64,000 nt of DNA from Candidatus Omnitrophota bacterium. Lineage in GTDB: Bacteria > Omnitrophota > Gorgyraeia > Gygaellales > Profunditerraquicolaceae. Within the stretch, counting starts at the first letter, position 1, and every line of letters starts with the position of its first letter. Positions 3,001-21,287 of the stretch are shown piece after piece. The notes beneath the pieces are model-generated. The model saw nothing but the letters and a program-made list of their open reading frames with translations. It was not told where the DNA came from and did no database searches. The stretch lies in contig JAGVER010000005.1 in NCBI GenBank assembly GCA_020058085.1, positions 2,743 to 66,742 on the forward strand. The letters run 5' to 3'. Made by a program: the position numbers and the translations under genes.

Positions 3001-6000
3001 GATACCGGGCCGTTTAATCCCATTGTGGAGAATTATGGAGTTCCTAATGATGGTAAAGTGGCAAATGGCGCCGGCTCCGGCGGCCCCGGTTCAGAATATA
3101 CCTATACTTGGACAATTCCCGATACTATCTCGCCGAATTGTAAGGTAAGAGTAGCAGACCCTAGGGATGAAACTGTGTTTAGCGAATCTGCAATATTTAA
3201 AATTCAGGGCGCCTTTACTTTGATTACTCCGCTAGTGGTTGATAATGGGCAGGGTGTTTATGAATGCCGCTGGGTTACTAATGAAGTAAGAGAAGTAAAA
3301 TGGACTACTTTTGGAACAATCCCCAAGGTTGATTTGGTTTATGCTAAAGATTCTGATAGTGATGGTGATATCGATAATGCGGATTTTACGCAAGAAATTG
3401 CCATGGTAAATGGGACTAATATTAATAATCTTAATACATTTAATTGGACAATTCCCAATGAGCGCTTAGCCAATCCGCCTTATTATGTGGAAGCCAAGAT
3501 ACGTATTTATGACCATAATGATCATGATGTTTATGTTCAGGGCCCGGTTACCGCCGGTGGAGTGGATAACTTGAAGATTGATTACTATAAGATTACCTGG
3601 GATATTAGGGATCTGATTACTAACCGGCAGATCGAAGGCTTGACAGTAAACGATACCTCCGGCTGGGTAGCTACCGGGCTTGCTTCGCCTATCACTCGTT
3701 ATGTTCCTGCAGGTTTCTGGACAGCAGAATGGACAAATAAAGATTATGGGCCGATATCTGAATCTTATCTTGCAGGCTGGGATGAAGATGCTCAGATTTG
3801 GCGGGGTGACCGCACAATTTATCGCACTATGGAGACTTTGGTAGTGCATATCTGGCGGGCTTATTCAGAATTTTCTTATGATGTTCCGCCTACGGATAAA
3901 TTAAATATTACCAGCTGGTTGGAAAGAGATGGTTATTTGGTTTCCGGCGTTTTGATTACAGATGTAACTATCTATGATGGTTTTGATAAGATAAAGAGAA
4001 AGACTAACTTAGTAGACGAGGCCGCTAATAAATTCTATTATTATACTGATATCCCTCCCGGCGTAAAATTGTGGATAGGCGACCGCTTGGGGGAACTGCG
4101 CACTATGCAAAATGTAATCAATGATTGCGCGCCGTATAAAACCGGCGAGATGGCTATACCTGCTGACTTTGCCGGTTTCTTTATCCAGTCTTGGTCTCCC
4201 ACTTCCTATACTGCCTCAGGCACAAATCACAGTACTTTGCAATCAGGTAGAGTCTACGCAGTTGCCAGCTATATGGGTTTATCCACCGGCGCTACCTTTA
4301 CTACTCCCGTATCATTTACGGTTACGATACCCATAGCCATGGCTAATGTTGAAGCAGCGGTTACTGGAATGGTTGACACGGTTAACTCTGTTTTGGATAA
4401 GCCTATATCCGTAGTCAGTGCGGAGATACAGGCTCAGTTAGAGGCGCAAACCGGGATTATTGACCAAAAAATGACTGAGCAGACCCAGATAATTCAGGTT
4501 GCCACCAATAATATGCAGACGATCATTCAGGATGCGATGGTTAGTTTTGAGACTACGGTGCAGGATTCAATTACTCTCTTGAAATCAAGCGCGGCGACAG
4601 CAGAAGAGGCAGCCGGGCTTCTGGAGACCACTGCTAAAAAATACTCTTGGAATGCTATGGTCTCTCCTGATCCGGCACTTACCGGCGATACTGTTACGCT
4701 AACTGCCCAGGGTATGCCCGGGTTAGCTCCCGTGCTTAAAGTTTATAGCTGGGATAATAAGACTATTTTAGATAATATAAAATTGACTGAGGCCAGCGAG
4801 GGAGTCTATAATTATGAATTTAAGGTGGATGCCCGTTTTACCGCGGGAAAGGCGTATACTTATGTGGTTACTGAGCAGAGTACTGCCGGCATGGTCTCCG
4901 GCTCCGGAATGGTAGAAAGTATGAGTCTTACTACGATTGCTGGTTTAGCGGCAGCCGCGCCTGGAGCGGAAAGGGCTGCCAAGAAGGCATTAGATGCGAT
5001 TGCGGCAGTTGAGGCAGTATTAATCTCTAAGGAGCCGATGAATATTGCCCTTACCCTAAAGAACCTTAAAGATTCCGTAGACGCGCTTCCAGAGGTAATG
5101 ACAAAAGAAGGCCCTTCCGCTCGTCTGGCTCAAACAGTAAATGAGATATCAAACAGGATAAAGAAATTGGGCGGCGATGAGGGGTATGATTTTACTACTT
5201 TAGTAGGTGAAGCTATAAACGAGGCGCCGGCTATCAAAGAATTACGCAGCAAGGCGGATGCAATCAGGACATCTACCGATGTTTTGACAAATGTTTTTGA
5301 AGCCAAATTTGGCGGCGTAGATAAGCCTGTTGTTGTAACTTCACTGGAACCCGGAAGCGTCAAATTCCGGATTGTAGCGCTTAACCCTTCGAAGACCAAG
5401 ACGCAAAAAACAGAGATAAAATACTATTTGCCTGCTGAAGTAAAACCAAAAGATATTTCAGATACAGCGGGCTTAGATTTGGAATATGATTCCGAAAAGT
5501 CTATTTACTACGTATATAAACCTGATCTAGAACTTTCTCCGGGTGAGATGCGCGTATTTGAGGTAGAAGTAGAAGATATTTGGTTCTTAGAGCAGAATAA
5601 ACTTTTAGAACTAAAGAATCGCACTGATATAGTCCTTGGTAAGCTTGAGACAACGCCTTATTATACAAAAGCTAAAGAGATAGCCGATACTATTTATCCG
5701 CGCTTAGATGAGATAGCTCTTTCTCAAAAAGATGATTCAATCAATCGCGAACAACATATAGGTATCTATCGGCAAAACCTTTTGACCTTAGGTCAGGTTA
5801 AAGAAGATATCGCCCGAATGGAAAAGATTCTTGTTACTGCCGGAGGGCCACCTGCGCCTGAAATGTTAGCCAAGACTAAAATAAAGGCGGATGAGCCTTC
5901 AAAGACAATGACCTGGATAGTTATTTGCACAGTTATTATTTTTACCGGGCTCTTAGCTGGAGTTCTTTTCTTTACTTGGCACCGCCAGGCACGCATCAGT

Positions 6001-6078
6001 AAAGAAGAACTTTTATCTGCTAAAAAGTCTGCCTTTCCAGAATCTGGTTCTAAAGAAGAACCTAAAGAAAATTCATAA
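1..6078 (+). CDS. Giant repeat-rich cell-surface protein, 5'-truncated by the window edge. It has >=12 tandem ~95-118 aa beta-rich (Ig-like) repeats, non-repeat beta and helical C-terminal regions, and a single C-terminal TM anchor.
   Basis: Frame 1 is open from nt 1, and GGTWQDIVSNLDVVPGANTYPWTVPVS already fits the repeat consensus, so the GTG at 97 is not the true start. Repeat consensus is roughly [FL]xLxSPNGGExW...ITW...G....V.I.YS....W..I....NDG.Y.WT[IV]P.....C.[IV]R[IV].D......D.SD..F.I.G. The TM helix MTWIVICTVIIFTGLLAGVLFFTW (nt 5908-5979) is followed by the basic tail HRQARISKEE. Confidence 0.85.
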   Translation, partial: GGTWQDIVSNLDVVPGANTYPWTVPVSTSTNTVVKVSDSSALSSVFKQTGVFTIRGGFSFVHPVSTDRWLANSSKLIEWNTLGSISSVYIQYSLQGGAGGIWNFVNDGSPISNATEQYSWTVPNAISSQACIKITDINDPQASKISDIFNIHGAITLTQPNGQEKLKAGQSDTSSKIKWTMTGPISSVDLALSTNGQAGTYTTFAVNQSAALLEYPWSVPTTTLSNNCFIRIRDSGDNLVEDFSDLAFKIMENFNLTSPNGTEQWVVSDPHDITWNSVGLASSVNLKYSIDAAHTTWTPIISQTVNDGVHPWTIPPTISSTCQVRVSDFNDDTDSYDLSDSDFKIQGRVTLISPVGGEKWGCASQQWIRWGWDGNIAKVDIHYYNGSTWVAIDEAQGYINTGEYEWTIPTISTIAAKVRVRDNADPINVYDISAVPFKIMGRVVVQVPNGAEVWYAGSNAVITWTKYGPASFDTVRIDYSLDDPAFNSPQSITTSTPNDGSFDWLNMPQEAVSGKVRIRIAKPDDIADVSDISDGDFRVRVQFTLNSPNGGQKWSVAGEQTITWAQIGNTQGVKFIYYRQGNPAINQTFTLPSVYTTGTWNHTWTIPDFIQNDLIMRVEDPLDNGAFDISDATFKIMAGFVVTRPDASSANEVDYKWYIEDPEIIRWTYTGTVSDVGIYYSTVGGIDGSWVALTSVPASNLQWTWPSVPNQITTQLKVKVGSATDADAYGLSFGMSRIGSKFNLTAPLGAEELIVQDPFTIIWANTGTVSKVDLHYSTDDFVTPREIITNLNNGANGGFYNWTVPDVFSHPGDPQTVKVRVKRYTDDDSFFFDISGNFRIKGSLWVKSPILDDEWDIGQPYQIKWGWKGTMPQVKIAYSTNGLSGPFNPILESYGIPNDGKVANGAGSGGPGSEYTYTWTIPDEATANAVIRIQDERITESDIVDDSEIFHIIGYLANVKIKDPANGQEVNKLAVASNYNINWEWGGSMPEVKITYSINGDTGPFNPIVENYGVPNDGKVANGAGSGGPGSEYTYTWTIPDTISPNCKVRVADPRDETVFSESAIFKIQGAFTLITPLVVDNGQGVYECRWVTNEVREVKWTTFGTIPKVDLVYAKDSDSDGDIDNADFTQEIAMVNGTNINNLNTFNWTIPNERLANPPYYVEAKIRIYDHNDHDVYVQGPVTAGGVDNLKIDYYKITWDIRDLITNRQIEGLTVNDTSGWVATGLASPITRYVPAGFWTAEWTNKDYGPISESYLAGWDEDAQIWRGDRTIYRTMETLVVHIWRAYSEFSYDVPPTDKLNITSWLERDGYLVSGVLITDVTIYDGFDKIKRKTNLVDEAANKFYYYTDIPPGVKLWIGDRLGELRTMQNVINDCAPYKTGEMAIPADFAGFFIQSWSPTSYTASGTNHSTLQSGRVYAVASYMGLSTGATFTTPVSFTVTIPIAMANVEAAVTGMVDTVNSVLDKPISVVSAEIQAQLEAQTGIIDQKMTEQTQIIQVATNNMQTIIQDAMVSFETTVQDSITLLKSSAATAEEAAGLLETTAKKYSWNAMVSPDPALTGDTVTLTAQGMPGLAPVLKVYSWDNKTILDNIKLTEASEGVYNYEFKVDARFTAGKAYTYVVTEQSTAGMVSGSGMVESMSLTTIAGLAAAAPGAERAAKKALDAIAAVEAVLISKEPMNIALTLKNLKDSVDALPEVMTKEGPSARLAQTVNEISNRIKKLGGDEGYDFTTLVGEAINEAPAIKELRSKADAIRTSTDVLTNVFEAKFGGVDKPVVVTSLEPGSVKFRIVALNPSKTKTQKTEIKYYLPAEVKPKDISDTAGLDLEYDSEKSIYYVYKPDLELSPGEMRVFEVEVEDIWFLEQNKLLELKNRTDIVLGKLETTPYYTKAKEIADTIYPRLDEIALSQKDDSINREQHIGIYRQNLLTLGQVKEDIARMEKILVTAGGPPAPEMLAKTKIKADEPSKTMTWIVICTVIIFTGLLAGVLFFTWHRQARISKEELLSAKKSAFPESGSKEEPKENS
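2689..3119 (+). repeat. Two perfect 77-nt direct repeats (2689-2765 and 3043-3119), 354 nt apart, inside adjacent protein repeats of the giant gene
   Basis: cctaatgatggtaaagtggcaaatggcgccggctccggcggccccggttcagaatatacctatacttggacaattcc occurs identically twice. It encodes PNDGKVANGAGSGGPGSEYTYTWTIP in both repeat units, while the flanking sequence has diverged. Confidence 0.95.
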
Positions 6079-6101: not shown

Positions 6102-6335
6102 ATGTTTCTTGATATTACTGTTTTAAGTCCAAAAGAAATAGTTTTTGAAGGAAAGGCTAAAAGTGTTATTTTACCGGGCGAAAATGGCGTATTCGAAGTG
6201 TTAGTGTTTCATAAATTTATCTTAAGCCGGCTTATTTCCGGAAAAATCACGGTAGATGAACAAAGCTTTCCCATACGCAGGGGGATTGTTAAGGCCCGTC
6301 AGAATAAAGTCACCATAATTATGGAAGAAGGATGA
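6102..6335 (+). CDS. atpC: F-type ATPase epsilon subunit, N-terminal beta-sandwich only (77 aa)
   Basis: VILPGENGVFEVLVFHKFILSRL...NKVTIIMEE matches the epsilon N-domain pattern (PG.eG.fgvL..H.p....L ... VtIla). The C-terminal two-helix hairpin is absent. ATGA overlap with the next gene. Confidence 0.7.
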   Translation: MFLDITVLSPKEIVFEGKAKSVILPGENGVFEVLVFHKFILSRLISGKITVDEQSFPIRRGIVKARQNKVTIIMEEG

Positions 6336-6550
6336 GCAGGAATATAGCACTTATTGTAATCTTTGGGTTCTGTGTATTGGGCCCTTGTGCTGTATTTGCC
6401 GCGGGTAGTTTCGCCAGTATTAACGCGCTGGGAAGGAATCCTTCAAGCGCGCCTAAAATATTTACCGCGATGATTATCGCGCTTGTTTTTGCTCAAGCCT
6501 TAGCAATTATAGCAATGTTAATAGTTTTTCAATTGTTCTCGCAATCATAG
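6332..6550 (+). CDS. ATPase c-subunit-like two-helix membrane hairpin lacking any acidic residue
   Basis: 72 aa with two hydrophobic helices joined by the polar loop GRNPSS (cf. ARQPE). It aligns nearly colinearly (one-residue offset) with 72-aa bacterial c subunits. ALVFAQALAIIAML corresponds to GVALVEALPIIGVV, with Gln55 (CAA, nt 6494-6496) at the ion-binding Glu position. The whole protein has no D or E, and the helix-1 GxGxGxG motif is degenerate. Confidence 0.6.
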   Translation: MSRNIALIVIFGFCVLGPCAVFAAGSFASINALGRNPSSAPKIFTAMIIALVFAQALAIIAMLIVFQLFSQS

Positions 6551-6601
6551 GCAGATAGAGTATAATTATCGCAAAGAGAGCTTAATTAGGAAAGGTAAAA
6601 T

Positions 6602-7318
6602 ATGTTTATCGTCCCTTTAATAATATTCCAGATATTTATTTTTGTTATTTTGGTTTTTGCTTTACGTAAAATAATGATGAAAAATGTGGTTTCGGCTACA
6701 AGGCACATTAATGAAATGGGCCAGGATTATGATAAAAAAGAAGAGGAGATAAGCAGGCGGTTTGAAGAACTAAAGCAGGAATCAGAGGAAACGGTTAGAA
6801 AAGCGCAACAAGAAGCGCAAGAGTTAAAGGCAGGGATTATTAAAGAAGCTGAAAGCGAAAGAGATAAAATGTTAAAACAGAGCAGGTCTCAAAGCGATGA
6901 GATAATTAAGCAGGCAGATAAGTCAAGGCAGCTTTTGCTCTCTGAAATAGACGAAAGAATAGCCAAAGAAGCGGTTAACAAAGCCTGTGAATTAATCCAG
7001 GAGACTTTGCCGGAACAGCTTAAGCAGAATGTGCATAGGTATTGGGTAAAAGAACTTATTAACGCTGGATTTAGCGAATTAGAGCGTTTACGCATTCCCA
7101 AAGATATCGACGAGGTAAAGATTATTTCAGCCTTTAATCTGGATGAAGAAGAGCGCAAAAATCTGTTTGATAAATTAAAAAACACGCTGGGTTCCGGGGT
7201 TAAATTTAAAGAAGAGATTGAACCAAAGGTAGTCGCAGGGATTATCATTACTATAGGCAGTCTTGTCCTAGACGGAAGTTTAAGGAATAAGATTAAGGAG
7301 AATATTAGGAATGCCTGA
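6602..7318 (+). CDS. ATPase peripheral-stalk b subunit fused to a delta/OSCP-like C-terminal domain
   Basis: N-terminal TM helix (MFIVPLIIFQIFIFVILVFAL), then a long charged coiled coil typical of subunit b. The C-terminus KVVAGIIITIGSLVLDGSLRNKIKENI matches the delta-subunit C-terminal signature (v.gG..i.iGd.viDgSvr..L..L). No separate atpH gene is present. Confidence 0.65.
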   Translation: MFIVPLIIFQIFIFVILVFALRKIMMKNVVSATRHINEMGQDYDKKEEEISRRFEELKQESEETVRKAQQEAQELKAGIIKEAESERDKMLKQSRSQSDEIIKQADKSRQLLLSEIDERIAKEAVNKACELIQETLPEQLKQNVHRYWVKELINAGFSELERLRIPKDIDEVKIISAFNLDEEERKNLFDKLKNTLGSGVKFKEEIEPKVVAGIIITIGSLVLDGSLRNKIKENIRNA

Positions 7319-8804
7319 TTCGGTATTAAAGGAAACAAGTATTAGAAGTGCGACCCGATTTGAAGTTAGAGAGATTGGACAAGTTCAGTCGGTGCGTAAA
7401 TTTATTCTTATTGTCAAGGGCCTGCCATCTTGTATTAATGGCCAGATTGTGGAGCTCGCAAATGGCACATTAGGATTGGTGATGGGTTTTACCGAAGATA
7501 AAGTCCAGATTTTAGTTTTAGGCGATGCTAGTTCTATCCGCGCGGGAGATGAGGTTTATAATAAAGGAAGGTCTTTGAATTTAGCTGTAGCAGACGCATT
7601 TTTAGGGCGGATAATCAACAGCCTTTGCCAGCCACAGGATGGCTTAGGCCCTATAGTGGTAAGCGAATTATATCCTGTATTTAAAGTGGCGCCGGGAGTT
7701 ATGGACCGCGCGCCTGTAAAAGATACCCTTGAAACAGGAACACTGATTCTGGACGCGATTATTCCTATAGCCAAGGGGCAGCGTCAGCTTCTTATAGGAG
7801 ATAGGCTTACCGGTAAGACAACGGTCGCGATTGACGCTATATTAAATCAAAAAGGCAAGGATGTTATTTGTATTTATTGCTGTATCGGGAAACCGTACTC
7901 CAGCTTCTTAAAGATTTTGGATATTCTAAATGAAAAAGATGCCTTACAATATACAATAATAGTCAGCGGTGTAGCATCTGTATCTACGGGAGAGCAATAT
8001 CTGGCCCCTTATACCGCCTGTATGCTGGGCGAATATTTTATGAATAAAGGCAAAGATGTTTTAGTTGTATTTGATGATTTGACTAAGCACGCGTGGATAT
8101 ATAGGCAGATATCTCTTCTTCTTGAGCGCGCGCCCGGAAGAGAGGCATACCCCGGAGATATATTTTATATTCATTCCCAATTAATGGAGCGCGCAGGTTT
8201 TCTTAAGCAGGAACTAGGTAGCGGATCAATGACATTTTTCCCCATTGTAGAAATACTTCAGGGCGATGTTACCGGTTATGTTTCCACAAACTTAATCTCT
8301 ATGACTGACGGGCAGCTGTATTTCTCTACCACACTTTTTAATAAAGGGTTTAAGCCGGCAATTGATTTTGGCCTTTCAGTTTCCCGTATCGGAAATAAGG
8401 CGCAATGGCCGGCGATGAAAGATTTAAGCAAATCTTTACGCCTGGATTACCTCCAGTATAAAGAACTTTTACAAATGACGCAATTACGGACTAGCGGGTT
8501 ATCCAAAGAAGCAGAGTTACGCTTAAAAAGAGGAGAAGCAATAAATCAACTTATTATTCAGGATAAAAATATCCCTGTTTCCTTGGAGGAGCAGATAATT
8601 TATCTGGTTGCTTTAAGCCGCGGCGTGCTTGATAATTTGCCGGTAAGTAAAATTAAACAATTTAAACAAGAGATCCTCAAATTCTTAGATAAGCGTTATC
8701 CGGGATTTTCTTTAAGCCTTCGTAACAGTAAGGCATTGACAGATGAAACCAAGATACAGATAGAGGATGTTTTGAGGGAGTATTTTAAGGAAGCGATAAA
8801 GTAA
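7311..8804 (+). CDS. atpA: F-type ATPase alpha subunit
   Basis: 497 aa. P-loop GDRLTGKTTVAID, LLLERAPGREAYPGDIFYIHSQLMERA, GLSVSRIG. Confidence 0.9.
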   Translation: MPDSVLKETSIRSATRFEVREIGQVQSVRKFILIVKGLPSCINGQIVELANGTLGLVMGFTEDKVQILVLGDASSIRAGDEVYNKGRSLNLAVADAFLGRIINSLCQPQDGLGPIVVSELYPVFKVAPGVMDRAPVKDTLETGTLILDAIIPIAKGQRQLLIGDRLTGKTTVAIDAILNQKGKDVICIYCCIGKPYSSFLKILDILNEKDALQYTIIVSGVASVSTGEQYLAPYTACMLGEYFMNKGKDVLVVFDDLTKHAWIYRQISLLLERAPGREAYPGDIFYIHSQLMERAGFLKQELGSGSMTFFPIVEILQGDVTGYVSTNLISMTDGQLYFSTTLFNKGFKPAIDFGLSVSRIGNKAQWPAMKDLSKSLRLDYLQYKELLQMTQLRTSGLSKEAELRLKRGEAINQLIIQDKNIPVSLEEQIIYLVALSRGVLDNLPVSKIKQFKQEILKFLDKRYPGFSLSLRNSKALTDETKIQIEDVLREYFKEAIK

Positions 8805-8807
8805 CCA

Positions 8808-9653
8808 ATGAAGACACTTTCAAACATAAAAAAAGATTTAGAGTTTAACCGCGGACTTTCTTCTTTAATCGAAGTGTTAAAAACTATGGCCGTGGCGCAA
8901 TACAGGATATTAGAGGAGAGGTTAAAGATTTTCGAGAAATTAATTGTATCCATAGAAGATTTTTTTGAGCATGTCGATATCACCAAGATTAATCATCCGT
9001 ATTTAATCCCCCAAAATAGATTTCAAGGAGTAGTGGCAATAACTTCTGACAGTGGGCTTTTGGGCGGCCTTAACATGCAGGTCGTCTCCGGCGCGCTTTT
9101 GGAATTAGAAAAGACCCCCGGCAAGCTTATTATTATCGGCGAACGCGGTAAACTTTATGTACGGGAGACTAACATTCCTTTTGTCTCTTTTGGCGGAGTT
9201 AAGGATGATGAGCGCTATGCCCAGGCCATGCAATTAAGGGATTATCTATTAGCTAAGGTTCTTGACGGCTCTTTCGGGTCTTTAAAGATAATTTATCCGC
9301 ATCCTGTATCTTTTACTGTGCAGCACGTGGAAACAGTTTCATTCCTGCCTTATAAGCCGAATTTAGTTAAGGAGAATACCGCTCTCCAAGCTTATCCAGA
9401 AGTTATTTTAGAATCAAGGGTAGGTGATATTATGCAATATTTGGTGTATACCTGGATGGGCCAGAAAATTTATGAAATCTTCGGCTTAAGCCGCTTGGCA
9501 GAATTTGCTGCCCGTTTTGTGCATCTTGAAGGAAGCCATCAGAGATTAAGAGAAATGGATACTAAAATTAAATTGGAGTATTTTCATGTCAGGCACGAAC
9601 TTATTGACCGTAATATGCGTGAGCTTTTCGCGGCAAGATTAGCTTTTTCTTAA
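8808..9653 (+). CDS. atpG: F-type ATPase gamma subunit
   Basis: 281 aa lying between alpha and beta. The N-terminal helix IKKDLEFNRGLSSLIEVLKTMAVAQY and C-terminal helix RHELIDRNMRELFAARLA fit the gamma coiled coil. Confidence 0.75.
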   Translation: MKTLSNIKKDLEFNRGLSSLIEVLKTMAVAQYRILEERLKIFEKLIVSIEDFFEHVDITKINHPYLIPQNRFQGVVAITSDSGLLGGLNMQVVSGALLELEKTPGKLIIIGERGKLYVRETNIPFVSFGGVKDDERYAQAMQLRDYLLAKVLDGSFGSLKIIYPHPVSFTVQHVETVSFLPYKPNLVKENTALQAYPEVILESRVGDIMQYLVYTWMGQKIYEIFGLSRLAEFAARFVHLEGSHQRLREMDTKIKLEYFHVRHELIDRNMRELFAARLAFS

Positions 9654-9656
9654 TAT

Positions 9657-11057
9657 ATGAAAGAAAATAAAGATATTATAATAGGGCATGTATCCGCGGT
9701 TCAGGGGCCTGTAGTGGATGTTAAATTCCAGAATTCAGTTGATGTGCCTAATATATTCAGCGTTATTCAAACCCAAACCATAGATAAAGAAAAGGTTGTT
9801 TTAGAGGTAGCAGAACATCTTCCGGGAAACATTGCCCGTTGCATTGCTATTAACTCGACGATAAATCTTCAGCGTAATCAGGAAGCCTACTCAAGTGGCG
9901 CTACTATTCAAATTCCTACAGGCGATATGCTTTATGGGCGCATAATAAATATGTTGGGGGAGCCCATTGATCAGAAAGGCGAAATTAAAAGTTCAGAGAG
10001 ATCTAATATAAGAAAAGCAGATATGGGAAGCCAGGTTAGATTAAAAAAAGATTTCCATAGGAGCTTTGATGTAATGGAGACCGGGATTAAAGTTATTGAT
10101 CTTCTTTTTCCCGTGGTTAAGGGAGGCAAAACCGGGATTTTAGGTGGCGCGGCTTTGGGAAAAAGTATTTTAACCCTGGAAATTATTCAGCATATTGTAA
10201 AAAGGCATCAGGGTAGCTGCGTATTTGTGGGTGTCGGTGAGCGTATCCGCGAGGGAAACGAGCTTTATTATGAATTATTAAAACACGAAGTTTTAGCTAA
10301 AACAATGATGGTCTTTGGCCAGATGAATGAGCCTCCGGGAGCCCGTTTCGGCGTGGCAATGACAGGTATTACCTTGGCTGAATCTGTTCAAAGGAAGAAT
10401 CAGGATGTCCTGCTTTTTGTGGATAATATTTTCAGGTTTGTTCAGGCAGGAGCAGAGATATCTACCCTTTTAGGCCGCGTTCCATCGGAGACAGGTTATC
10501 AGCCTACCTTGATTTCAGAGGCGAGTGAATTTCATGAGAGGATACGTTCTTCACAGGAAGCAGGCGGCGCGATTACTTCTTTTGAAGCAGTATATGTTCC
10601 TGCCGATGATTTAACTGATCCGGCAGTAGTAGCTATTTTTAGTTTCTTGGATTCAATTCTGGTACTTTCACGCGAACGCATACAATTGGGTTTGTATCCT
10701 GCGGTAGATCCCTTATTATCGTCCTGCGCTAATTTGGATATTGATATCGTCGGCAGAAAACATTTTGATATTTCTCAAGAGGTAATCAGGATTTTTCAGA
10801 GATACGAAGAATTAAGGCGCATTGTTTTAGTTGTGGGAATCGATGAATTATCGTCCACCGACCGCATTCTTTATGAACGCGCCAGAAAATTACAGAATTT
10901 TCTTACCCAGCCATTTTTTGTCGCGGAGACTTACACCGGTAAAAAGGGAGAGTATGTCACTTTGCCCCAGACTCTCGAAGGTTGTGAAAGGATTATCGCG
11001 GGAAGAGTTGATTCTATCCCCGAGGAACAATTTTATTTGATTGGTGTTTTGCCCTAA
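9657..11057 (+). CDS. atpD: F-type ATPase beta subunit (catalytic)
   Basis: 466 aa. P-loop GGAALGKS, VGVGERIREGNELY, DVLLFVDNIFRFVQAG, GRVPSETGYQPTL, YVPADDLTDPA. The DELSEED region reads DELSSTD. Confidence 0.92.
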   Translation: MKENKDIIIGHVSAVQGPVVDVKFQNSVDVPNIFSVIQTQTIDKEKVVLEVAEHLPGNIARCIAINSTINLQRNQEAYSSGATIQIPTGDMLYGRIINMLGEPIDQKGEIKSSERSNIRKADMGSQVRLKKDFHRSFDVMETGIKVIDLLFPVVKGGKTGILGGAALGKSILTLEIIQHIVKRHQGSCVFVGVGERIREGNELYYELLKHEVLAKTMMVFGQMNEPPGARFGVAMTGITLAESVQRKNQDVLLFVDNIFRFVQAGAEISTLLGRVPSETGYQPTLISEASEFHERIRSSQEAGGAITSFEAVYVPADDLTDPAVVAIFSFLDSILVLSRERIQLGLYPAVDPLLSSCANLDIDIVGRKHFDISQEVIRIFQRYEELRRIVLVVGIDELSSTDRILYERARKLQNFLTQPFFVAETYTGKKGEYVTLPQTLEGCERIIAGRVDSIPEEQFYLIGVLP

Positions 11058-11059: not shown

Positions 11060-11527
11060 ATGATTAGAAGTCCCAAAAGATTAGGTGATATCTTAATAGA
11101 GAAAGGCTTGATAACCCAAGAAGTGTTAGATGATGCTTTACGCGAGCAGCGGGAAACAAAGGAATTCTTGGGCGCAATATTATTAAGAAAAAAACGGATC
11201 AAAGAAGCGGATTTGTTAACGGCGCTATCTGAACAATTTCATATTCCACTTTTTAGTTTGAAAGATAAATATATTGATTGGAATTTAGTCAAGGGCTTCA
11301 GCGCTTCGCTAATTTTAGATTACAGATGTTTCCCTGTAGCCAAAGATGATTGGTCAATAACCATGGCCATAACTAACCCCTTGGATATCCGGGTACTAAA
11401 GAGGGTCGAAGATGAAGCAAAGGGATTAAGATTGAAATTAGTTTTGGTTTCCGAGGGAGATATCAACGATTCTATTAAGAGGTACAATAGCTATCTAAGG
11501 GGTAATATTTCTAAACTATTCGAGTAA
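11060..11527 (+). CDS. Stand-alone GspE/MshE N-terminal (MshEN / T2SSE_N) domain protein, predicted c-di-GMP receptor
   Basis: 155 aa. Residues 7-30, RLGDILIEKGLITQEVLDDALREQ, match the 24-residue MshEN motif RLGxx[LVI][LVI]xxG[LVI][LVI]xxxxLxxxLxxQ exactly. After a 5-residue spacer comes a second copy, FLGAILLRKKRIKEADLLTALSEQ, with G->K at one position. Confidence 0.8.
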   Translation: MIRSPKRLGDILIEKGLITQEVLDDALREQRETKEFLGAILLRKKRIKEADLLTALSEQFHIPLFSLKDKYIDWNLVKGFSASLILDYRCFPVAKDDWSITMAITNPLDIRVLKRVEDEAKGLRLKLVLVSEGDINDSIKRYNSYLRGNISKLFE

Positions 11528-11530
11528 AAT

Positions 11531-13684
11531 ATGCCTAAGAAACTAGATATAATTTTATCAGAAGCATTAATTGAAAAAAGGTTAATCGCGCAGAATGATA
11601 TAGGCAATTTTCTTAAAGAGGCTGAGTCATTGAATGAAAGCCTGCAGCAAATTTTAATTAAACGGGGCATTTTTCCTGAAAAAGATATTTTGAATATTTT
11701 GGGGGAAAAATTAAAGTTATCCAGCGTTAACTTAAGAGAGATCACAATTGATAAAGCTGTTTTAGCAAAAGTCCCGGTCAAAATTGCCTTGTATTATAGA
11801 TTCGTCCCGGTTCAAATAAAAGACAGGGTTTTAACTATTGCGGTTTCTTGCCCGTTAGAGATAAAAATCCAGGATGAGGTAAGGGCGCAGCTGGGTTATG
11901 ATATTGAGACGGTTCTCTCTTCTTCGGGCGATCTCCTGGAATCCCTGAAGAAATATTATGGCTTGGCGGCCGATACCTTAGAAAAGATTTCTTCTAACGT
12001 CCAGCAGGCCGAAGCATCCCACGAAACGCATTTTGAGACAGTAGAGGATATTGAAAAGCTGGCAGGAGACGCTTCGGTAATAAAATTGGTCAACCAGATA
12101 ATTCTGGAGGGATTCAGGAAACGCGCTACCGATATTCACATTGAGCCTTATAGAGAAGGGGTCTCTTTACGTTATCGCATTGACGGGTTGCTTTACGACG
12201 CAAATTTTCCTCCCGAAATAAAGAATTTCTTAAGCGCTATAATTTCCCGTATTAAGATAATGTCCAATTTAAATATTGTTGAGCGTAGGCTACCCCAGGA
12301 TGGCAGGGCGATAGTAAAGGTTGGAGAGCAGATGCTGGATCTGCGTATTTCCACAATACCTACGCCATTCGGGGAAAGTGTGGTAGTAAGGATCCTGCCT
12401 ACGCAGATGCTTTTTAGCCTGGAGAAGCTTGGGCTTGGGAAAAAAGATTTGCAGGTTTTTGAGGGATTAATTAAGAAACCCCATGGTATAATTTTTGTTA
12501 CCGGTCCGACAGGGAGCGGAAAGACTACTACCTTGTATGCCTGTTTAAGCAGGATTAATACCAAAGAACGTAAAATTATTACCATTGAGGATCCTATTGA
12601 GTATGAAATGTCCGGGATTACCCAGATACAGGTTAGTCCGGATATCGGCCTGGATTTTGCCCGGGGATTACGCAGTATTTTAAGGCATGACCCGGATGTA
12701 ATAATGGTAGGAGAGGTCAGGGATTTAGAAACCGCAGAAATAGCTATTCGCGTGGCCTTGACCGGCCACCTTGTATTTTCCACTCTCCATACTAATGATG
12801 CTGCCAGCGGTATCACCAGATTAATAGACATAGGAGTCGAACCGTTTCTTTTGGCTTCCAGCGTTGAGGCATTCATTGCCCAGCGTTTAATAAGATTAAT
12901 TTGTCCTGATTGTAAAATTGAGGATAACGCCGCTCCCATAGAATTAAAAGAGCTGATTGCCCGGGACATTTCCTTGAAGTCCTTAAATGAGGTTAAGATA
13001 TTTAAAGGTAAGGGTTGCCCGAGTTGCAACTTTACCGGATTTTTCGGCAGGACCGCAATTTACGAAATACTCCCGGTGGACGAAGCAATGAAGGATTTAA
13101 TTTTGAAGAAAGCCACTGCTACTCAGATAAAAAGGCTTGCTCTTTCAAAAGGGATGCGTACATTGCGTCAGGATGGTTGGCATAAAGTAATTCTCGGAGC
13201 GACCACCCCTGAAGAAGTGATGAAAGTTACTTCTGCCGAAGAGTATACGGAAGAAGATAAAAATGCCCGGTTCCTTCCCGCCGGTTCTTTAAAGCCAGTA
13301 ACTTATCAAGTCCCAAATCCCGATGAGAAAAGGGCGTATCTTCGCTTAAACAGCAAAGTGAATTTACGTTATAAAGTATTTGATACGGCAGAGAAGCTGC
13401 TCAAAAAAGGATTTAAGCCGGAAGAGTTTAGCGTTACAAATAATCTTTCCGCGGGGGGCCTGGTCTTTTTTTCAGACGATATGCTGGCTGTTGGTTTGAT
13501 TTTAGAATTAACTATAGAACTGCCTGATAGCGAGGAGCCGATAGGATGCCTGGCTAAAGTGGTAAGGCTGGAAGAGAGGCAGGATCATAAAGGTTATAAT
13601 GTTGCAGTTTGTTTTCTGGATATAACCGGCGCAGGAAGATCAAGGCTAGGAAGGTACATAGAATTAGAAACGGAGATGATATAA
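11531..13684 (+). CDS. GspE/PilB-family secretion ATPase with N-terminal T2SSE_N domain and C-terminal PilZ domain
   Basis: 717 aa. Walker A GPTGSGKTTT, Asp/His boxes, tetracysteine CPDC...CPSC. The C-terminal ~120 aa carry the PilZ motifs KRAYLR (RxxxR) and NLSAGG ([DN]xSxxG). Confidence 0.9.
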   Translation: MPKKLDIILSEALIEKRLIAQNDIGNFLKEAESLNESLQQILIKRGIFPEKDILNILGEKLKLSSVNLREITIDKAVLAKVPVKIALYYRFVPVQIKDRVLTIAVSCPLEIKIQDEVRAQLGYDIETVLSSSGDLLESLKKYYGLAADTLEKISSNVQQAEASHETHFETVEDIEKLAGDASVIKLVNQIILEGFRKRATDIHIEPYREGVSLRYRIDGLLYDANFPPEIKNFLSAIISRIKIMSNLNIVERRLPQDGRAIVKVGEQMLDLRISTIPTPFGESVVVRILPTQMLFSLEKLGLGKKDLQVFEGLIKKPHGIIFVTGPTGSGKTTTLYACLSRINTKERKIITIEDPIEYEMSGITQIQVSPDIGLDFARGLRSILRHDPDVIMVGEVRDLETAEIAIRVALTGHLVFSTLHTNDAASGITRLIDIGVEPFLLASSVEAFIAQRLIRLICPDCKIEDNAAPIELKELIARDISLKSLNEVKIFKGKGCPSCNFTGFFGRTAIYEILPVDEAMKDLILKKATATQIKRLALSKGMRTLRQDGWHKVILGATTPEEVMKVTSAEEYTEEDKNARFLPAGSLKPVTYQVPNPDEKRAYLRLNSKVNLRYKVFDTAEKLLKKGFKPEEFSVTNNLSAGGLVFFSDDMLAVGLILELTIELPDSEEPIGCLAKVVRLEERQDHKGYNVAVCFLDITGAGRSRLGRYIELETEMI

Positions 13685-13688: not shown

Positions 13689-14903
13689 ATGGGCACGTAT
13701 AAATATCGCGCAAAAAAAGGTTTTAATGAAGTTGTGGAAGGGTTAATTGACGCGCAGTCTGAAAAAGAAGCGATTGAAAAGTTAAGCTCTATGGAGTTGT
13801 TGCCCTTACACTTGGAAGAAGCCCGTGCCAGTAAATCTAAATCCATTTCTTTAGTCAAATTTCGCGGTAAAATTAAATCACGCGAAATTACTATTTTCAG
13901 CCGTCAATTAGCCAGCCTTTTGAAATCCGGCGTAGCTATTTTAAACGCCCTTAATATTATCAATGATCAGTCTGATGATTCTAACCTGAAAAATATACTT
14001 TATAATATTAGCAATGCAATAAAAGATGGCGCTACATTTTCTTCGGTGCTTGCGCAATATCCCCGGGTTTTTTCTCCTCTTTATGTTGCCATGATCCGCA
14101 CGGGAGAAGGCAGCGGGTCGCTTCCGGATGTGCTTTTAAGGATATCTGACTATCGCATCAAGCAAGAAGAGATGCTTTCGCGTTTTCGTATGGCCCTTGT
14201 TTACCCGATACTCATGGCAGTTGTGGGCCTGGGCACTATAATTTTTATGCTCACATTTGTAATGCCAAGATTAATGAAGATATTTTTGAGCATGGGGCAG
14301 GATTTACCTTTACCTACCCGTATTTTAATTGCGATAAGTGGTTTTCTTTGCCATAGCTGGTTTTGGGTAGTCTTAATTTTGGCAATCATAATTTTAATTC
14401 TTCGTAGAGAACTAAGGACAAAGTCCGGAAGGCTATCTTTGAGCCTGTTTAAATTACACCTTCCTTTGTTCGGAAAGCTTATCCTTAAAGCTGAACTTGC
14501 CCGTTTTTGCCGTACCCTGGAATTACTCATAAAAGATGGCATCACTATATTAAAGGCGATTGAAATAGCTGTTCCGGTAATTGACAACGAAATAATAAAG
14601 AACCATTTATTGCAGAGTTATCAACAACTACAGCGCGGCGGTTCTTTTGGTAGGAGTTTAAGAAATGTAAAATTATTTCCTGTTTTCATGAGTAACCTTA
14701 TAGGAGTAGGCGAAGAATCAGGCAGGCTTGATGAGGCCTTGGCGGAAGTGGCAGGTAATTACGAGCGGGATACTGACGAAGCAATTAAGGTAATGAACAG
14801 TCTCTTAGAGCCGGTGATGATTTTAGTAATGGGCTTAATCGTAGGTTTTATCGTGGTTGCAATGATTCTGCCCATATTTGAAATCAACATGATGGCTAAA
14901 TGA
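13689..14903 (+). CDS. GspF/PilC-family inner-membrane platform protein
   Basis: 404 aa with a duplicated T2SSF domain architecture, three TM segments, and a position directly after the GspE-like ATPase. Confidence 0.9.
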   Translation: MGTYKYRAKKGFNEVVEGLIDAQSEKEAIEKLSSMELLPLHLEEARASKSKSISLVKFRGKIKSREITIFSRQLASLLKSGVAILNALNIINDQSDDSNLKNILYNISNAIKDGATFSSVLAQYPRVFSPLYVAMIRTGEGSGSLPDVLLRISDYRIKQEEMLSRFRMALVYPILMAVVGLGTIIFMLTFVMPRLMKIFLSMGQDLPLPTRILIAISGFLCHSWFWVVLILAIIILILRRELRTKSGRLSLSLFKLHLPLFGKLILKAELARFCRTLELLIKDGITILKAIEIAVPVIDNEIIKNHLLQSYQQLQRGGSFGRSLRNVKLFPVFMSNLIGVGEESGRLDEALAEVAGNYERDTDEAIKVMNSLLEPVMILVMGLIVGFIVVAMILPIFEINMMAK

Positions 14904-15757
14904 TAAAGAAAGTAAAGATTTTACTTATTTTCCCGCTGCTATTTTTATCTTTATCTATAGCTAAGGCGGAAGAGTGGCAGGAGTTAAAGAGTGAACATTT
15001 TATCGCTTATTTTACCCGGGATGAAAAATTCGTCAAAGAAGTATTGGATAAAGCAGAGGTTTATTATCGTAGCATCGCTTTAGATTTAGGGTATTCTAGA
15101 TACAAAGAATTCTGGACTTGGGATAAAAGAGTAAAAATTTATATTTATCCGGACCATGCCTCCTATTTAAAGGCAACGGGTCAACCTGACTGGTCTCAGG
15201 GGGTAGCGGATTACAGGGCTAAACAGATAATTAGTTTTATCTGGAGCAGGGGATTTCTTGAATCGCTTCTTCCTCACGAAATGGCCCATTTGATTTTTAG
15301 GGATTTTGTGGGTTTTGAAAGCGATATACCCCTCTGGTTAGATGAAGGCGTGGCGCAATGGGCAGAAGATGTAAAAAGAGGGACAATGAAGAGGATGGTC
15401 AAGGATGCTTATAATCAGAATGGATTATTGAGTATGAATGATATGATGAAATTAGAGATTAGGAATTTAAAGGATAAAAACCTGGTTTTTATCCGGCCAA
15501 CACGCACAAAAGAAGGCAACGACGGAGTTGTAATTTTAAATAGCACTAATTTAGTTAATCTTTATTATTTAGAGGCCGCTTCACTAGTAGATTTTCTTAT
15601 AGCAAAATATGGCTCTGATAGTTTTGCTAATTTGTGTCGTCAGCTGCGCGACGGCAAGCAGATAGAAGAGGCCTTAACTTTTACTTATCCTAGTTCTATC
15701 CGTAGTATCGGTGACTTGGATAATCAGTGGAGAGATTATATAGCGAGGCAGTATTGA
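14900..15757 (+). CDS. Secreted zinc metalloprotease-like protein (peptidase MA-like, HExxH)
   Basis: Signal peptide MIKKVKILLIFPLLFLSLSIAKA. HEMAH at LLPHEMAHLIF and a downstream LWLDEGVAQWAE (gluzincin-type third ligand). ATGA overlap with the GspF-like gene. Confidence 0.6.
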   Translation: MIKKVKILLIFPLLFLSLSIAKAEEWQELKSEHFIAYFTRDEKFVKEVLDKAEVYYRSIALDLGYSRYKEFWTWDKRVKIYIYPDHASYLKATGQPDWSQGVADYRAKQIISFIWSRGFLESLLPHEMAHLIFRDFVGFESDIPLWLDEGVAQWAEDVKRGTMKRMVKDAYNQNGLLSMNDMMKLEIRNLKDKNLVFIRPTRTKEGNDGVVILNSTNLVNLYYLEAASLVDFLIAKYGSDSFANLCRQLRDGKQIEEALTFTYPSSIRSIGDLDNQWRDYIARQY

Positions 15758-18113: not shown

Positions 18114-19601
18114 ATGTCTGGGGTCAACTTAAAGAGAATTAATCTTAGATCCTTCGCGAGAAACAGAAATGAACTTGTAGGCATAGATTTTAGCGGCAAT
18201 AATTTAAAGTTTGCCCATGCAAGAATCTCATCTAATAAAAGAGAGGTGATCAATCTTTCTAGCCGCGATATAAGCGGCCTAGCCGATGCCGATATCTCCA
18301 AGGTTATAAGGTCCGGCTATGGCGAATTAGGCGCTAAAAACCCACAAATTATAAATATCATACCTCCGCATTTGGTGATAACTAAGAATATTGAAATTCC
18401 TTCGGTTAATGAAAAAGAGATAAGAGAGATTATAAACCTGCAGGCAGGCAGGCATACTCCATATTCGCGCGAAGAGATAATTGTGGATTATATTGATATA
18501 GGCACTTACAAGAATAGTTATACCAAAATACTTTTGGTGATTGTTGCGCGTAGTGTCGTAAAAAGGCAGTTTGAGATATTGGATAAAGCCGGCCTTCAGT
18601 TAGAGCGGGTGTTGCTTGCTCCGGAAGGCTTGGCCTGGTCTGTTTCCAAGGTATTAAAGATTGAAACCCAGGATTCTCCGGCTAACGTCGTACATATTGA
18701 TGAAGGTTTTACCGATTTTAGTATTGTTTTTAAGAATAACGTAGTCTTTATCAGGTCTATCCCCATAGGAACAAGGCATTTATTAAATGAGAAGGGAAAG
18801 TATGAAAGCAGATTTGTTGAAGAGCTTAAAAATTCTCTCGAGGCTTATCAAAATGAGGATATAGAAAAGAGCCCCAGTGTTATTATTTTAACAGGAGCTG
18901 TTGAAGAATTAAAAGATTTGGAAGCCGTCTTAAATAGCAGTTTGCATTTGCCTATTAAAGTAATGCCTTATTTTAAGAATCTTACAATTTCAGACCAGGC
19001 ATTAAAGGCAGCATCCGCAACAAGGAATTTATCTTTTCTGAATGTAATTGCCCCTCTTCTTACAACGCAAGATATGAAGATAAACCTTGTGCCCGAGGAA
19101 GTAAAACTAAGAAAATCGCTTGAAGAAAAAGGAAGAGATCTGATTAAAGCAGGGATTTTTGTTTTATTGTCTTTTGTTTTGTTATTTTCTATAATGGCAA
19201 GTAAAATTTATTTTAAAAGCGCTTATTTAAAGGTTTTAAATAATAAATACCAGCCATTGAGCCAGGATGCGCAAAAATTAGAAGAAGATTTTACCAAAGT
19301 GAGCGCGATAAAAGGTTATCTGGCTAAGCGCGGATATCTTTTAGAGATATTAACTGAATTATATAATGTTACTCCGGAGGGCTTAGAGTTAAACGATATC
19401 CGTTTTGATGAGCAGGGTAAGTTTACCGTTAGAGGCGTTGCTGAGTCCATGTCTACGGTATTTTCTTTTGTTGGCAGTATGGAAAAATCAAAATATTTTG
19501 AAGATGTTAAGACCAAATACACCTCAAAACGAAAAGACGGGATGAAAGATGTAACTGATTTTGAGATAGCTGCTTCGCTTAAAAAGTATTTTTCTTCATG
19601 A
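18114..19601 (+). CDS. PilM-PilN fusion (GspL-like) assembly protein
   Basis: N-terminal actin-like PilM region (VGIDFSGNNLKFAHARIS...), then a single TM (IFVLLSFVLLFSIMASKIYF), then a PilN-like periplasmic domain. Confidence 0.7.
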   Translation: MSGVNLKRINLRSFARNRNELVGIDFSGNNLKFAHARISSNKREVINLSSRDISGLADADISKVIRSGYGELGAKNPQIINIIPPHLVITKNIEIPSVNEKEIREIINLQAGRHTPYSREEIIVDYIDIGTYKNSYTKILLVIVARSVVKRQFEILDKAGLQLERVLLAPEGLAWSVSKVLKIETQDSPANVVHIDEGFTDFSIVFKNNVVFIRSIPIGTRHLLNEKGKYESRFVEELKNSLEAYQNEDIEKSPSVIILTGAVEELKDLEAVLNSSLHLPIKVMPYFKNLTISDQALKAASATRNLSFLNVIAPLLTTQDMKINLVPEEVKLRKSLEEKGRDLIKAGIFVLLSFVLLFSIMASKIYFKSAYLKVLNNKYQPLSQDAQKLEEDFTKVSAIKGYLAKRGYLLEILTELYNVTPEGLELNDIRFDEQGKFTVRGVAESMSTVFSFVGSMEKSKYFEDVKTKYTSKRKDGMKDVTDFEIAASLKKYFSS

Positions 19602-20432: not shown

Positions 20433-20924
20433 ATGAAGAAAGTAACCGGTATTATCTTAGCCTTGTTGATAGCCACAAGCTTAAATTCTTTTGCCTTGGA
20501 TATTCCGCTTATGGACATGCGTAATAAAATCTTTGAAGAATCTAAAGTCATGAAGAAGAAATTGGCGAATTCAAAAGATATTATTTTCTTAAACAGCATG
20601 TGGGATTCATGCGTAATAGCGATTAACCAATTAGACGCGTATTTTTCTTTAGTGGGGATTTTTAATACTATTAAAAAAGAAAACCTGACAGAAGCTTCCG
20701 TAGGATACCTTATCAGTTGGCTAAATCAGACTAAGCAGACGAACGAATTGAATATAAAAAACCTGAATTCGTTGACATCTACATTTGAGGCAAGGACCAA
20801 GCTTTACAAGGCAAAATTAACAAATATTTTTACCGAGTTAGATAGCCACATAACTAAAGAGCTGGAGAAGCTTTCGTTATTACAGAGATCTCTTCAAAAA
20901 ACTAAGCCCGGTAAGAAACCTTAG
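20433..20924 (+). CDS. Hypothetical secreted helical protein
   Basis: Signal peptide MKKVTGIILALLIATSLNSFA and a strong SD. I recognise no family. Confidence 0.6.
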   Translation: MKKVTGIILALLIATSLNSFALDIPLMDMRNKIFEESKVMKKKLANSKDIIFLNSMWDSCVIAINQLDAYFSLVGIFNTIKKENLTEASVGYLISWLNQTKQTNELNIKNLNSLTSTFEARTKLYKAKLTNIFTELDSHITKELEKLSLLQRSLQKTKPGKKP

Positions 20925-20933
20925 GGTATGTGA

Positions 20934-21287
20934 ATGTTTATCAAAATAAAAAATATCTGCCTGTTAGCTATATTTTCTCTTATTATTTTATTCCCTCTCT
21001 TCGCGCAGGATGATACGGGCCTGAAGGAAGATGCCGAGGGGAAAACAGTAATTAAGACTGTATCCGGGCTTAAATTTGAAGTTCCTGAAGACAGGCCCAT
21101 CGAAGAGAGGAATAATATTATCGCCCCAATGCCCTTGGATGAATATGTCGCGTTAAAATTTTCGAAGTTTGAATCCCGCTTGCAGAAAATCGAGGAGAAT
21201 ATCAACCAAATTCAGGATCAATTAAATATTATTCAAGGGGAGTTAAACTCACCCAAGGCCAAAGAAAACCCTTCGCAAAAACCGTAA
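20934..21287 (+). CDS. Hypothetical secreted protein with C-terminal coiled coil
   Basis: Signal peptide MFIKIKNICLLAIFSLIILFPLFAQ. The C-terminal heptad-like segment is LQKIEENINQIQDQLNIIQGEL. Confidence 0.55.
   Translation: MFIKIKNICLLAIFSLIILFPLFAQDDTGLKEDAEGKTVIKTVSGLKFEVPEDRPIEERNNIIAPMPLDEYVALKFSKFESRLQKIEENINQIQDQLNIIQGELNSPKAKENPSQKP

Follow-up and report, generated by a model that had tools for sequence, protein, structure and literature searches.

The locus lies within the window, the whole stretch of 64,000 nucleotides that was analysed, between a set of F-type ATPase genes and a gsp/pil operon. The 3' end of the gene for a very large Ig-repeat protein comes first and is followed by F-type ATPase genes for epsilon-like, c-like, b/delta, alpha, gamma and beta subunits; the epsilon-like ORF is truncated to 77 aa, and no gene for the a subunit was seen in this cluster. 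An ORF with an ATG start and a TAA stop begins 2 nt past the stop codon of the beta subunit gene (atpD), and only 3 nt separate its own stop from the ATG of a much longer ORF, which encodes a GspE/PilB secretion ATPase within the gsp/pil operon. The genes after this ATPase encode, in order, GspF, a Peptidase_MA_2 protein, GspG, three pseudopilins that include T2SSJ-like and T2SSK-like proteins (GspJ and GspK), a PilM-PilN fusion and a GspM/PilO-like protein. Further downstream, an interval of 1.4 kb (20924–22381) lacks long ORFs and holds only small ORFs and rpsO; it gave no Rfam matches. A regular expression search of the 64-kb window for GGDEF, EAL and HD-GYP genes gave none, so c-di-GMP turnover in this organism rests on the literature on the phylum. 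The features of the locus are collected in Table 1.

Table 1. Features of the free MshEN gene, the adjoining secretion ATPase and selected neighbours (coordinates in the window).
Feature	Coordinates	Strand	Basis
F-type ATPase beta subunit gene (atpD), conserved upstream neighbour	9657..11057	+	Pfam
Free MshEN protein gene, stand-alone, 155 aa	11060..11527	+	ORF list; Pfam MshEN and NCBIfam c-di-GMP_motif above cut-offs; AlphaFold2
c-di-GMP half-site 1 (predicted), residues 7–30, RLGDILIEKGLITQEVLDDALREQ	11078..11149	+	11/11 fixed motif positions
Spacer RETKE, 5 residues	11150..11164	+	Read from the sequence; length as in the published 53-residue module
c-di-GMP half-site 2 (predicted), residues 36–59, FLGAILLRKKRIKEADLLTALSEQ	11165..11236	+	8/11 fixed motif positions
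MshEN_C / ND1-like alpha-beta subdomain, residues 60–145	11237..11494	+	Pfam PF05157; strands in AlphaFold2 model
GspE/PilB-type ATPase, 717 aa, degenerate MshEN - T2SSE - PilZ	11531..13684	+	Pfam, NCBIfam
Degenerate 53-residue module of the ATPase, residues 8–60	11552..11710	+	NF053729 below cut-off
T2SSE ATPase core, residues 178–564	12062..13222	+	Pfam PF00437, E = 1.5e-129
C-terminal PilZ domain, residues 600–711	13328..13663	+	Pfam PF07238; RAYLR 601–605, NLSAGG 638–643
GspF/PilC platform protein gene	13689..14903	+	Pfam T2SSF, NCBIfam GspF
PilM-PilN fusion, GspL-like, candidate docking partner of ND1-type domains	18114..19601	+	Pfam PilM_2, PilN

The smaller ORF is a genuine, separately translated gene that encodes one complete MshEN domain, consisting of a four-helix c-di-GMP module and an ND1-like alpha/beta subdomain. 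Its presence, claimed in a first-pass annotation of this DNA, was confirmed from the ORF list and by reading of the sequence. The two half-sites were scored against the consensus RLGxx(L/V/I)(L/V/I)xxG(L/V/I)(L/V/I)xxxxLxxxLxxQ (Wang et al., 2016, PMC5013675). The first was found to fit every fixed position, as the annotation had it, and the second follows after the spacer and ends where it had been placed; the single deviation ascribed to this second copy was however an undercount, as three departures from the strict consensus were found. These are F for R at position 1, K for G at position 10 and R for L/V/I at position 11, and the turn formed by positions 10 and 11 does not fit the motif of Wang et al. 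(PMC5013675) even in its relaxed form. The Leu, Gly-3 and Gln-24 contact residues are all present in both half-sites. The NCBIfam profile NF053729 ("c-di-GMP_motif", MshE-related) matched residues 7–59 at 61.6 bits against a cut-off of 38, and the Pfam profile MshEN (PF05157) matched residues 60–145 at 47.5 bits (E = 1.8e-12, cut-off 23.1). A relaxed motif expression applied to all six frames of the 64-kb window matched the two half-sites of this gene only.

The structure of the free protein was predicted as a single chain with AlphaFold2 using an alignment of 55 sequences, which gave a model with a mean pLDDT of 90.5. The model contains helices at residues 8–14, 20–33, 37–43 and 49–60, followed by an alpha/beta subdomain with strands at residues 91–95, 99–104 and 124–129. 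When the model was compared with the PDB using Foldseek, the closest structural match was c-di-GMP-bound MshE (5HTL), with TM scores of 0.83/0.90 and an rmsd of 1.9 Å over 140 columns. The next matches were c-di-GMP-bound PilF GSPII-B and then the Xanthomonas PilB N-domain in its PilZ complex (7LKO and 7LKM chains), and the Foldseek probability was 1.00 for both 5HTL and PilF GSPII-B. The predicted fold is that of an MshEN domain, with a four-helix bundle (MshEN_N) and an alpha/beta subdomain containing a three-stranded sheet (MshEN_C / ND1).

The adjoining ATPase carries an N-terminal MshEN copy of its own. The half-sites of this copy, ILSEALIEKRLIAQNDIGNFLKEA and SLQQILIKRGIFPEKDILNILGEK, are joined by the spacer ESLNE and keep the hydrophobic scaffold, while the R/G/Q residues are missing from both; the contact positions for Gly-3 and Gln-24 of the two half-sites are occupied by S10, A31, Q39 and K60. 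The NF053729 profile gave 18.6 bits, below the cut-off of 38. [quoted passage not shown] At the opposite end of the protein the Pfam PilZ profile (PF07238) matched at 43.4 bits against a cut-off of 22.5, and regular expressions found both PilZ signatures, RxxxR and (D/N)xSxxG, intact in the tail. From the profile and the motifs together the C-terminus is classed as a PilZ domain, and c-di-GMP binding by this domain is predicted. The NCBIfam GspE profile TIGR02533 gave 589 bits, slightly under its equivalog cut-off of 630. The best 120 homologues of the ATPase all have the order degenerate MshEN - T2SSE - PilZ with lengths of 702–737 aa, and 116 of them keep both PilZ motifs. The earlier claim that the ATPase retains the T2SSE_N scaffold after losing its contact residues therefore holds both in the window and across these homologues. 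The division of labour proposed in the first-pass annotation also stands as far as the intact free copy and the degenerate tethered copy are concerned, but the picture it gave was incomplete, as the C-terminal PilZ domain had been overlooked. The ATPase is not expected to be blind to c-di-GMP, because of this canonical PilZ domain, and the free protein and the ATPase together appear to form a system with two different c-di-GMP sensors, MshEN and PilZ, which are the two widespread dedicated receptor domains for this messenger.

Relatives of the free protein were collected by a search of 5.8 billion proteins, which returned 133 clusters at E <= 1e-3. The best 120 of these are nearly all about 145–160 aa long (overall 130–211 aa) at 47–100% identity, and the named sources among them are Candidatus Omnitrophica/Omnitrophota. 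The contact residues of the free copies were compared with those of the N-domains of 120 clusters of partner ATPases. Gly-3 of half-site 1 is conserved in the free family (G9 in 114 of 120 clusters), whereas the ATPase N-domains have S, A or Y at this position, and the Gln-24 of the same half-site (Q30), present in all 120 free clusters, is replaced by A, I, V or T. The pattern in half-site 2 is the same: G38 is found in 120/120 free copies against Q, A, R or K in the ATPases, and Q59 in 115/120 against K, R or E. In the 120 partner ATPases the Gly or Gln of the motif is absent from the four commonest residues at each of the four contact positions, while the hydrophobic positions are kept. The stacking leucines of the free copy (L8, L23, L27, L37, L52 and L56) are kept in 97–119 of the 120 clusters, with L52 in 111 and L56 in 119. 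At motif position 1 the free family has R, K or L in half-site 1 and a conserved Phe in half-site 2 (F36 in 110/120), while the turn residues 45 and 46 vary across the 120 free copies.

These differences can be read as binding versus non-binding on the basis of published mutagenesis. [quoted passage not shown] Position 1 of the motif tolerates K or L: the corresponding residues of Thermus PilF GSPII-B are Lys and Leu, with a Kd of 6 nM that falls to 2 nM in the K167L variant, and the authors concluded that a hydrophobic residue at this position predicts very high affinity (PMC11731258). A conserved Phe would thus be no obstacle to tight binding. As aligned, the free copy retains the c-di-GMP contact residues, with a family-specific Phe in place of the Arg that opens half-site 2, and the tethered copy has lost them; c-di-GMP binding by the free protein, like the high affinity ascribed to it in the first-pass annotation, is accordingly a prediction from sequence and from the mutagenesis of other MshEN domains. 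The ND1-like half of the free copy is conserved to the same degree as the helical ligand module, with Y71, W74, F80, S83, C90, N106, E117 and E119 as invariants. The ND1 subdomain of the ATPases has a different set (K75, P82, K84, A86, Y88, F91, D115, R118, Y143 and G144). That the free subdomain has an invariant set of its own points to a distinct conserved interaction surface, and the difference between the sets weakens the idea that the free copy mimics the ND1 subdomain of the ATPase and competes for an identical site.

The features of half-site 2 leave room for another explanation, in which the free protein has lost c-di-GMP binding through this half-site and serves as a ligand-independent adaptor, a structural or docking subunit like XpsE and the Xanthomonas PilB N-domains. 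Non-binding MshEN domains are common, and an adaptor would fit the equal conservation of the ND1-like half. The three departures, among them the missing turn Gly and a charged residue in place of a hydrophobic one, likewise count against a c-di-GMP receptor, as does the variable turn. The near-invariance of the Gly, Gln and Leu contacts across proteins that are 47–66% identical would however be hard to explain without ligand binding, and the sister domain on the ATPase of the same operon shows how such a domain looks once the constraint is relaxed. The NF053729 score is also far over its cut-off, and PilF GSPII-B, a 6 nM binder, tolerates both position-1 substitutions and a shortened half-site 2 (PMC11731258). 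The adaptor explanation was on balance judged unlikely, though it is the strongest of the alternatives considered.

The distribution of the free gene was examined by two further searches. Searching 1.84 billion cluster representatives (50% identity) with a profile yielded 163 proteins at E <= 1e-30, and the best 150 of these include 57 proteins of 136–185 aa, 30 of 261–520 aa that lack a Walker A motif and 50 longer multi-domain proteins; those of the 30 that were examined consist of tandem MshEN domains only. When one genome per GTDB species was scanned with a query alignment of 12 sequences, 40 loci were obtained. About 29 Omnitrophota species share the order atpD, free MshEN in one or two copies, GspE-PilZ, GspF, Peptidase_MA_2 and GspG, where the step from atpD to MshEN was counted for those Omnitrophota loci read that had upstream sequence. 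How often free MshEN genes precede GspE/PilB genes had been put forward as a point to survey, and about 29 Omnitrophota species among the GTDB species representatives is the figure obtained. Taxa are named as in the deposited MAGs, several of which carry the label "uncultured Planctomycetia" though the synteny is identical. Three loci (L023, L028 and L031) contain two free MshEN copies in tandem. When four ATPases of the PilZ type were picked on long contigs without regard to the small gene, all four were found to have a free MshEN upstream; three adjoin it directly, and in the fourth (L052) a response-regulator gene stands between the two. The spacer between the free MshEN gene and the ATPase gene ranges from -89 to +119 nt over 29 species, and in 15 of these the two genes are in different reading frames. 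The remaining 14 are in frame, compared with about 10 expected by chance, and 7 of the 14 have a 3-nt gap, i.e. a single codon. In this window the two ORFs also share a frame and are parted only by TAA AAT.

The conserved position next to atpD could be taken to indicate a target other than the T2SS-like ATPase, in which case the free protein might buffer c-di-GMP or act as a sink for it, or might regulate the F-type ATPase. The gene sits in the slot usually held by atpC, the epsilon-like gene elsewhere in the cluster encodes merely 77 aa and is truncated, and the gene for the a subunit was not seen; the coupling to atpD is tight, and the synteny of the atp genes with MshEN is conserved. Three other Omnitrophota loci (L035–L037) speak against this, as they have no free copy and no PilZ domain, and an ordinary MshEN-T2SSE ATPase itself directly follows atpD. 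The adjacency to atpD therefore belongs to the gspE operon rather than to the free copy, which is moreover a paralogue of the GspE N-domain and whose presence accompanies changes in the ATPase, namely the degenerate N-domain and the PilZ domain. A target outside the secretion machinery is for these reasons considered improbable.

The excess of in-frame pairs, half of them with a single-codon gap, would be expected if programmed read-through of the stop codon produced some fused (MshEN)2-T2SSE-PilZ protein beside the two separate products. About half of the species nevertheless have the genes out of frame or overlapping, and the in-frame excess can equally be a remnant of an original in-frame duplication. 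The stop codon in this window, TAA, has an A after it, a context in which termination is efficient, and read-through is regarded as very improbable. The possibility that positions 11060–13684 form a single (MshEN)2-T2SSE-PilZ gene that a sequencing error or recent nonsense mutation has interrupted, which the shared frame in this window and the known (MshEN)2-4-T2SSE ATPases of Clostridia, Deinococcus-Thermus and Nitrospirota might bring to mind and against which the first-pass annotation had already argued, is refuted for practical purposes by the conserved lengths (more than 120 small-protein clusters share the same end point), the varying spacers, the species that are out of frame, the intervening gene of L052 and the best 120 ATPase homologues, the longest of which is 737 aa, so that none carries a second fused MshEN.

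The relationship between the free and tethered copies was examined by neighbour joining on about 150 columns, which gave a rough tree that carries no support values. In this tree the free copies form one clade and the N-domains of the partner ATPases another, and the N-domains of ordinary MshEN-T2SSE ATPases of 538–565 aa fall between both. The mean identity to these ordinary N-domains is 32% for the free copy and likewise 32% for the tethered copy, compared with 23% between the free and tethered copies, which indicates that both diverged in different directions from an ancestor of the ordinary type. By these comparisons the free and tethered copies are related by duplication. The description of the free protein as a module split off from the ATPase was therefore right in recognising a free-standing relative and wrong about a split, since the ATPase retains a full N-domain and the two copies lie in separate clades. 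The tandem free copies pair within their own genomes in the same rough tree, which points to later local duplications. Three further loci (L033 and L047/L048) combine a free copy that has intact half-sites with an ATPase of 559–596 aa that lacks PilZ and whose N-domain is only partly degenerate, and these could possibly represent an intermediate state. The data suggest an order in which duplication of the N-domain came first, gain of PilZ by the ATPase second and loss of the MshEN contact residues of the ATPase last.

The reading we favour, with a probability of roughly 60%, is that the ATPase N-domain underwent an ancient duplication, from which a c-di-GMP receptor subunit that would act in trans arose, and that the ATPase itself shifted to sensing through PilZ. 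The free protein would bind c-di-GMP in its helical bundle, and its diverged ND1-like subdomain would dock it on the secretion or pilus motor, either on the ATPase or on the GspL-like PilM-PilN platform; once docked, it may gate the machine in trans, at the level of assembly or of activity. Through its PilZ tail the ATPase would gain a second input from c-di-GMP, for which the affinity is probably lower. The ND1 domains of GspE/PilB proteins dock on GspL/PilM, according to the work on EpsE-EpsL and GspE-GspL summarised in PMC8389850, and the Xanthomonas PilB N-domain binds a PilZ protein (PMC8389850). From these precedents the candidate partners of the free protein are the PilM-PilN fusion, the degenerate N-domain of the ATPase and its PilZ tail. 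In the architectural model for M. xanthus the PilM-PilN units outnumber the PilB protomers, with a dodecamer around a hexamer (PMC8389850).

With MshEN and PilZ sensors on one machine, a response to c-di-GMP with two thresholds is plausible. A more specific version, in which a diffusible c-di-GMP-loaded MshEN subunit gates the T2SS/T4P-like motor in trans with a nanomolar threshold set by MshEN and its Phe stacking and a micromolar threshold set by PilZ, is offered tentatively. The MshEN subunit might then occupy the PilM-PilN/GspL sites or clamp the degenerate N-domain or the PilZ tail of the ATPase.

When compared with systems that are already known, the closest likeness in fold is to Vibrio cholerae MshE (5HTL, PMC5013675), with which the free protein shares the two subdomains, the module of 24 + 5 + 24 residues and a half-site 1 that is identical at the fixed positions. 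One obvious difference is that the MshEN domain of V. cholerae is covalently part of the ATPase, while in Omnitrophota it is a separate polypeptide. Half-site 2 also differs, with a conserved Phe for Arg and an unconserved turn, and the identity is about 24–25%. Small proteins that contain only MshEN-type modules and no ATPase are likewise known, as Pseudomonas aeruginosa PA3740 (MshEN - divergent T2SSE_N1) and Cyanothece cce_1044 ((MshEN_N)2), and both are listed in Supplementary Table 4 of Wang et al. (2016), PA3740 among the experimentally characterised c-di-GMP binders. As far as the available descriptions of these two proteins go, neither has a described GspE/PilB neighbour or a degenerate tethered partner; in the same descriptions the C-subdomain of PA3740 is highly divergent and cce_1044 has none, whereas the Omnitrophota protein has one.

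Several modules per motor, some binding and some degenerate, are also found in the multi-MshEN ATPases, such as Thermus thermophilus PilF with GSPII-A/B/C and the (MshEN)2-4-T2SSE proteins of Clostridia and Nitrospirota; in PilF, GSPII-A does not bind c-di-GMP and GSPII-B binds it at 6 nM (PMC11731258). In those proteins the modules are fused in one chain, whereas the module predicted to be binding-competent in Omnitrophota is the product of its own gene, which means that the stoichiometry and localisation of MshEN can be uncoupled from those of the ATPase. The PilB-PilZ-FimX system of Xanthomonas citri (7LKO, PMC8389850) resembles the present one in having a degenerate MshEN-like N-domain on the ATPase, a c-di-GMP signal that arrives through accessory proteins and a PilZ-fold module that cooperates with the PilB N-domain. 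In X. citri, however, PilZ is a free protein without c-di-GMP binding, and sensing falls to the EAL domain of FimX; in Omnitrophota the PilZ domain is fused to the ATPase with RxxxR and NxSxxG intact, and the free sensor would be MshEN.

The founding paper (PMC5013675) already lists stand-alone MshEN-type proteins, ATPases with 2–4 fused MshEN domains and MshEN-T2SSE fusions to cNMP-binding domains. A free MshEN conserved just upstream of its parent ATPase, a T2SSE-PilZ fusion, and the combination of both with a degenerate tethered copy were each looked for in the architecture table of that paper and in the open-access literature and were not found. The locus is a known domain with a known logic in a new conserved wiring. 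The route by which the ligand signal of MshEN reaches the ATPase is not yet clear (review PMC11656802). By placing the sensing MshEN apart from the motor, keeping a copy on the motor that is predicted to be ligand-blind and adding a PilZ tail, this Omnitrophota lineage amounts to a natural dissection experiment, in which the separate proteins let the effect of c-di-GMP-bound MshEN on the machine be tested. In addition, the stacking position occurs in this family as a Phe variant, for which published work predicts that tight binding is favoured, and a conserved "hypothetical protein" is given an annotation in a poorly understood phylum. In work on the giant genes of Omnitrophota, T2SS-like loci and small PilZ genes were noted in their vicinity and GGDEF domains within the giant genes themselves; a free-MshEN module is not mentioned there. 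The T2SS-like loci of this phylum have been linked to giant proteins and to a predatory or host-dependent life style. On the more specific, tentative version with two thresholds, the module, which in Omnitrophota shares its operon with the genes of an unusual F-type ATPase and lies beside giant surface-protein genes, could switch the coupling of attachment or predation to secretion.

The free MshEN gene and the gene for the GspE/PilB-type ATPase were found to share a reading frame, with only TAA AAT between the two ORFs (window 11525–11533). When the same pair was compared across 29 species, the ORFs were in frame in 14 and out of frame in 15, and this mild in-frame excess may be a leftover of an in-frame duplication. 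Additional or unusually arranged MshEN copies were present in several of the homologous loci compared. The tandem free copies of the Omnitrophota loci L023, L028 and L031 are each other's nearest relatives and therefore represent lineage-specific duplications; in the second copy of L023 Gln-24, the last fixed position of the MshEN motif, has been lost from half-site 2. In L019 the start of the ATPase is preceded by a 366-aa ORF, in which an ATPase-N-like domain is joined to an MshEN resembling the free copy, and that ORF is in turn preceded by a free MshEN; this odd order could stem from a duplication at the locus or from faulty assembly. The triple tandem protein of L046 adjoins no T2SS or pilus gene. 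Approximately 30 of the best 150 profile matches were 261–520 aa in length and had no Walker A motif.

The PilZ domain of the window ATPase is canonical, and its fusion to T2SSE was common to the best 120 homologues. This fusion was found neither in the MshEN architecture table nor in the open-access literature searched. Two-component genes inside or beside the operon of some relatives hint at further regulatory input. In L052 the free MshEN is separated from the ATPase by a gene encoding only a REC domain, and in L049 and L050 histidine kinases and a response regulator are located downstream.

Coordinates of the features described, in the window or in the homologous loci compared (L-numbers)
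Feature	Location	Remarks
3' end of the gene for a very large protein built from repeats of Ig-like modules	window 97-6078	1993 aa, open at window start
F-type ATPase gene set	window 6102-11057	directly 5' of the T2SS-like operon
PilZ domain	window 13328-13663	ATPase residues 600-711, C-terminal; motifs RAYLR, NLSAGG
Peptidase_MA_2 (zinc metallopeptidase-like) gene	window 14900-15757	between gspF and gspG
PilM-PilN fusion	window 18114-19601	single 495-aa protein; GspL-like architecture
Two tandem free MshEN genes	L023 5995-6911; L028 6001-7010; L031 5493-6468	5' of the ATPase
Unusual arrangement of MshEN copies	L019 1001-2853	CAYIMR010000157.1
Triple tandem MshEN protein	L046 6001-7395	464 aa; within a 2.9-Mb contig
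Two-component genes	L052 2626-2991; L049 7223-; L050 6383-7625	

The Peptidase_MA_2 gene occurred in most loci with a PilZ-type ATPase and was missing from those with an ordinary or PilZ-less ATPase (L033, L035–L037 and L047). No secretin gene was seen among the ORFs examined in the 64-kb window.

The F-type ATPase set consists of an epsilon-like ORF (77 aa, N-domain only), a c-like hairpin of 72 aa, a b/delta fusion, alpha, gamma and beta, and no a-subunit gene was seen. These genes are probably co-transcribed with the T2SS-like operon, and the atpD–gspE neighbourhood is kept throughout the Omnitrophota loci. The protein of Ig-like modules has a C-terminal transmembrane helix. In L001 the gene at the same position codes for 10,669 aa, in line with the "giant gene" setting described for Omnitrophota.
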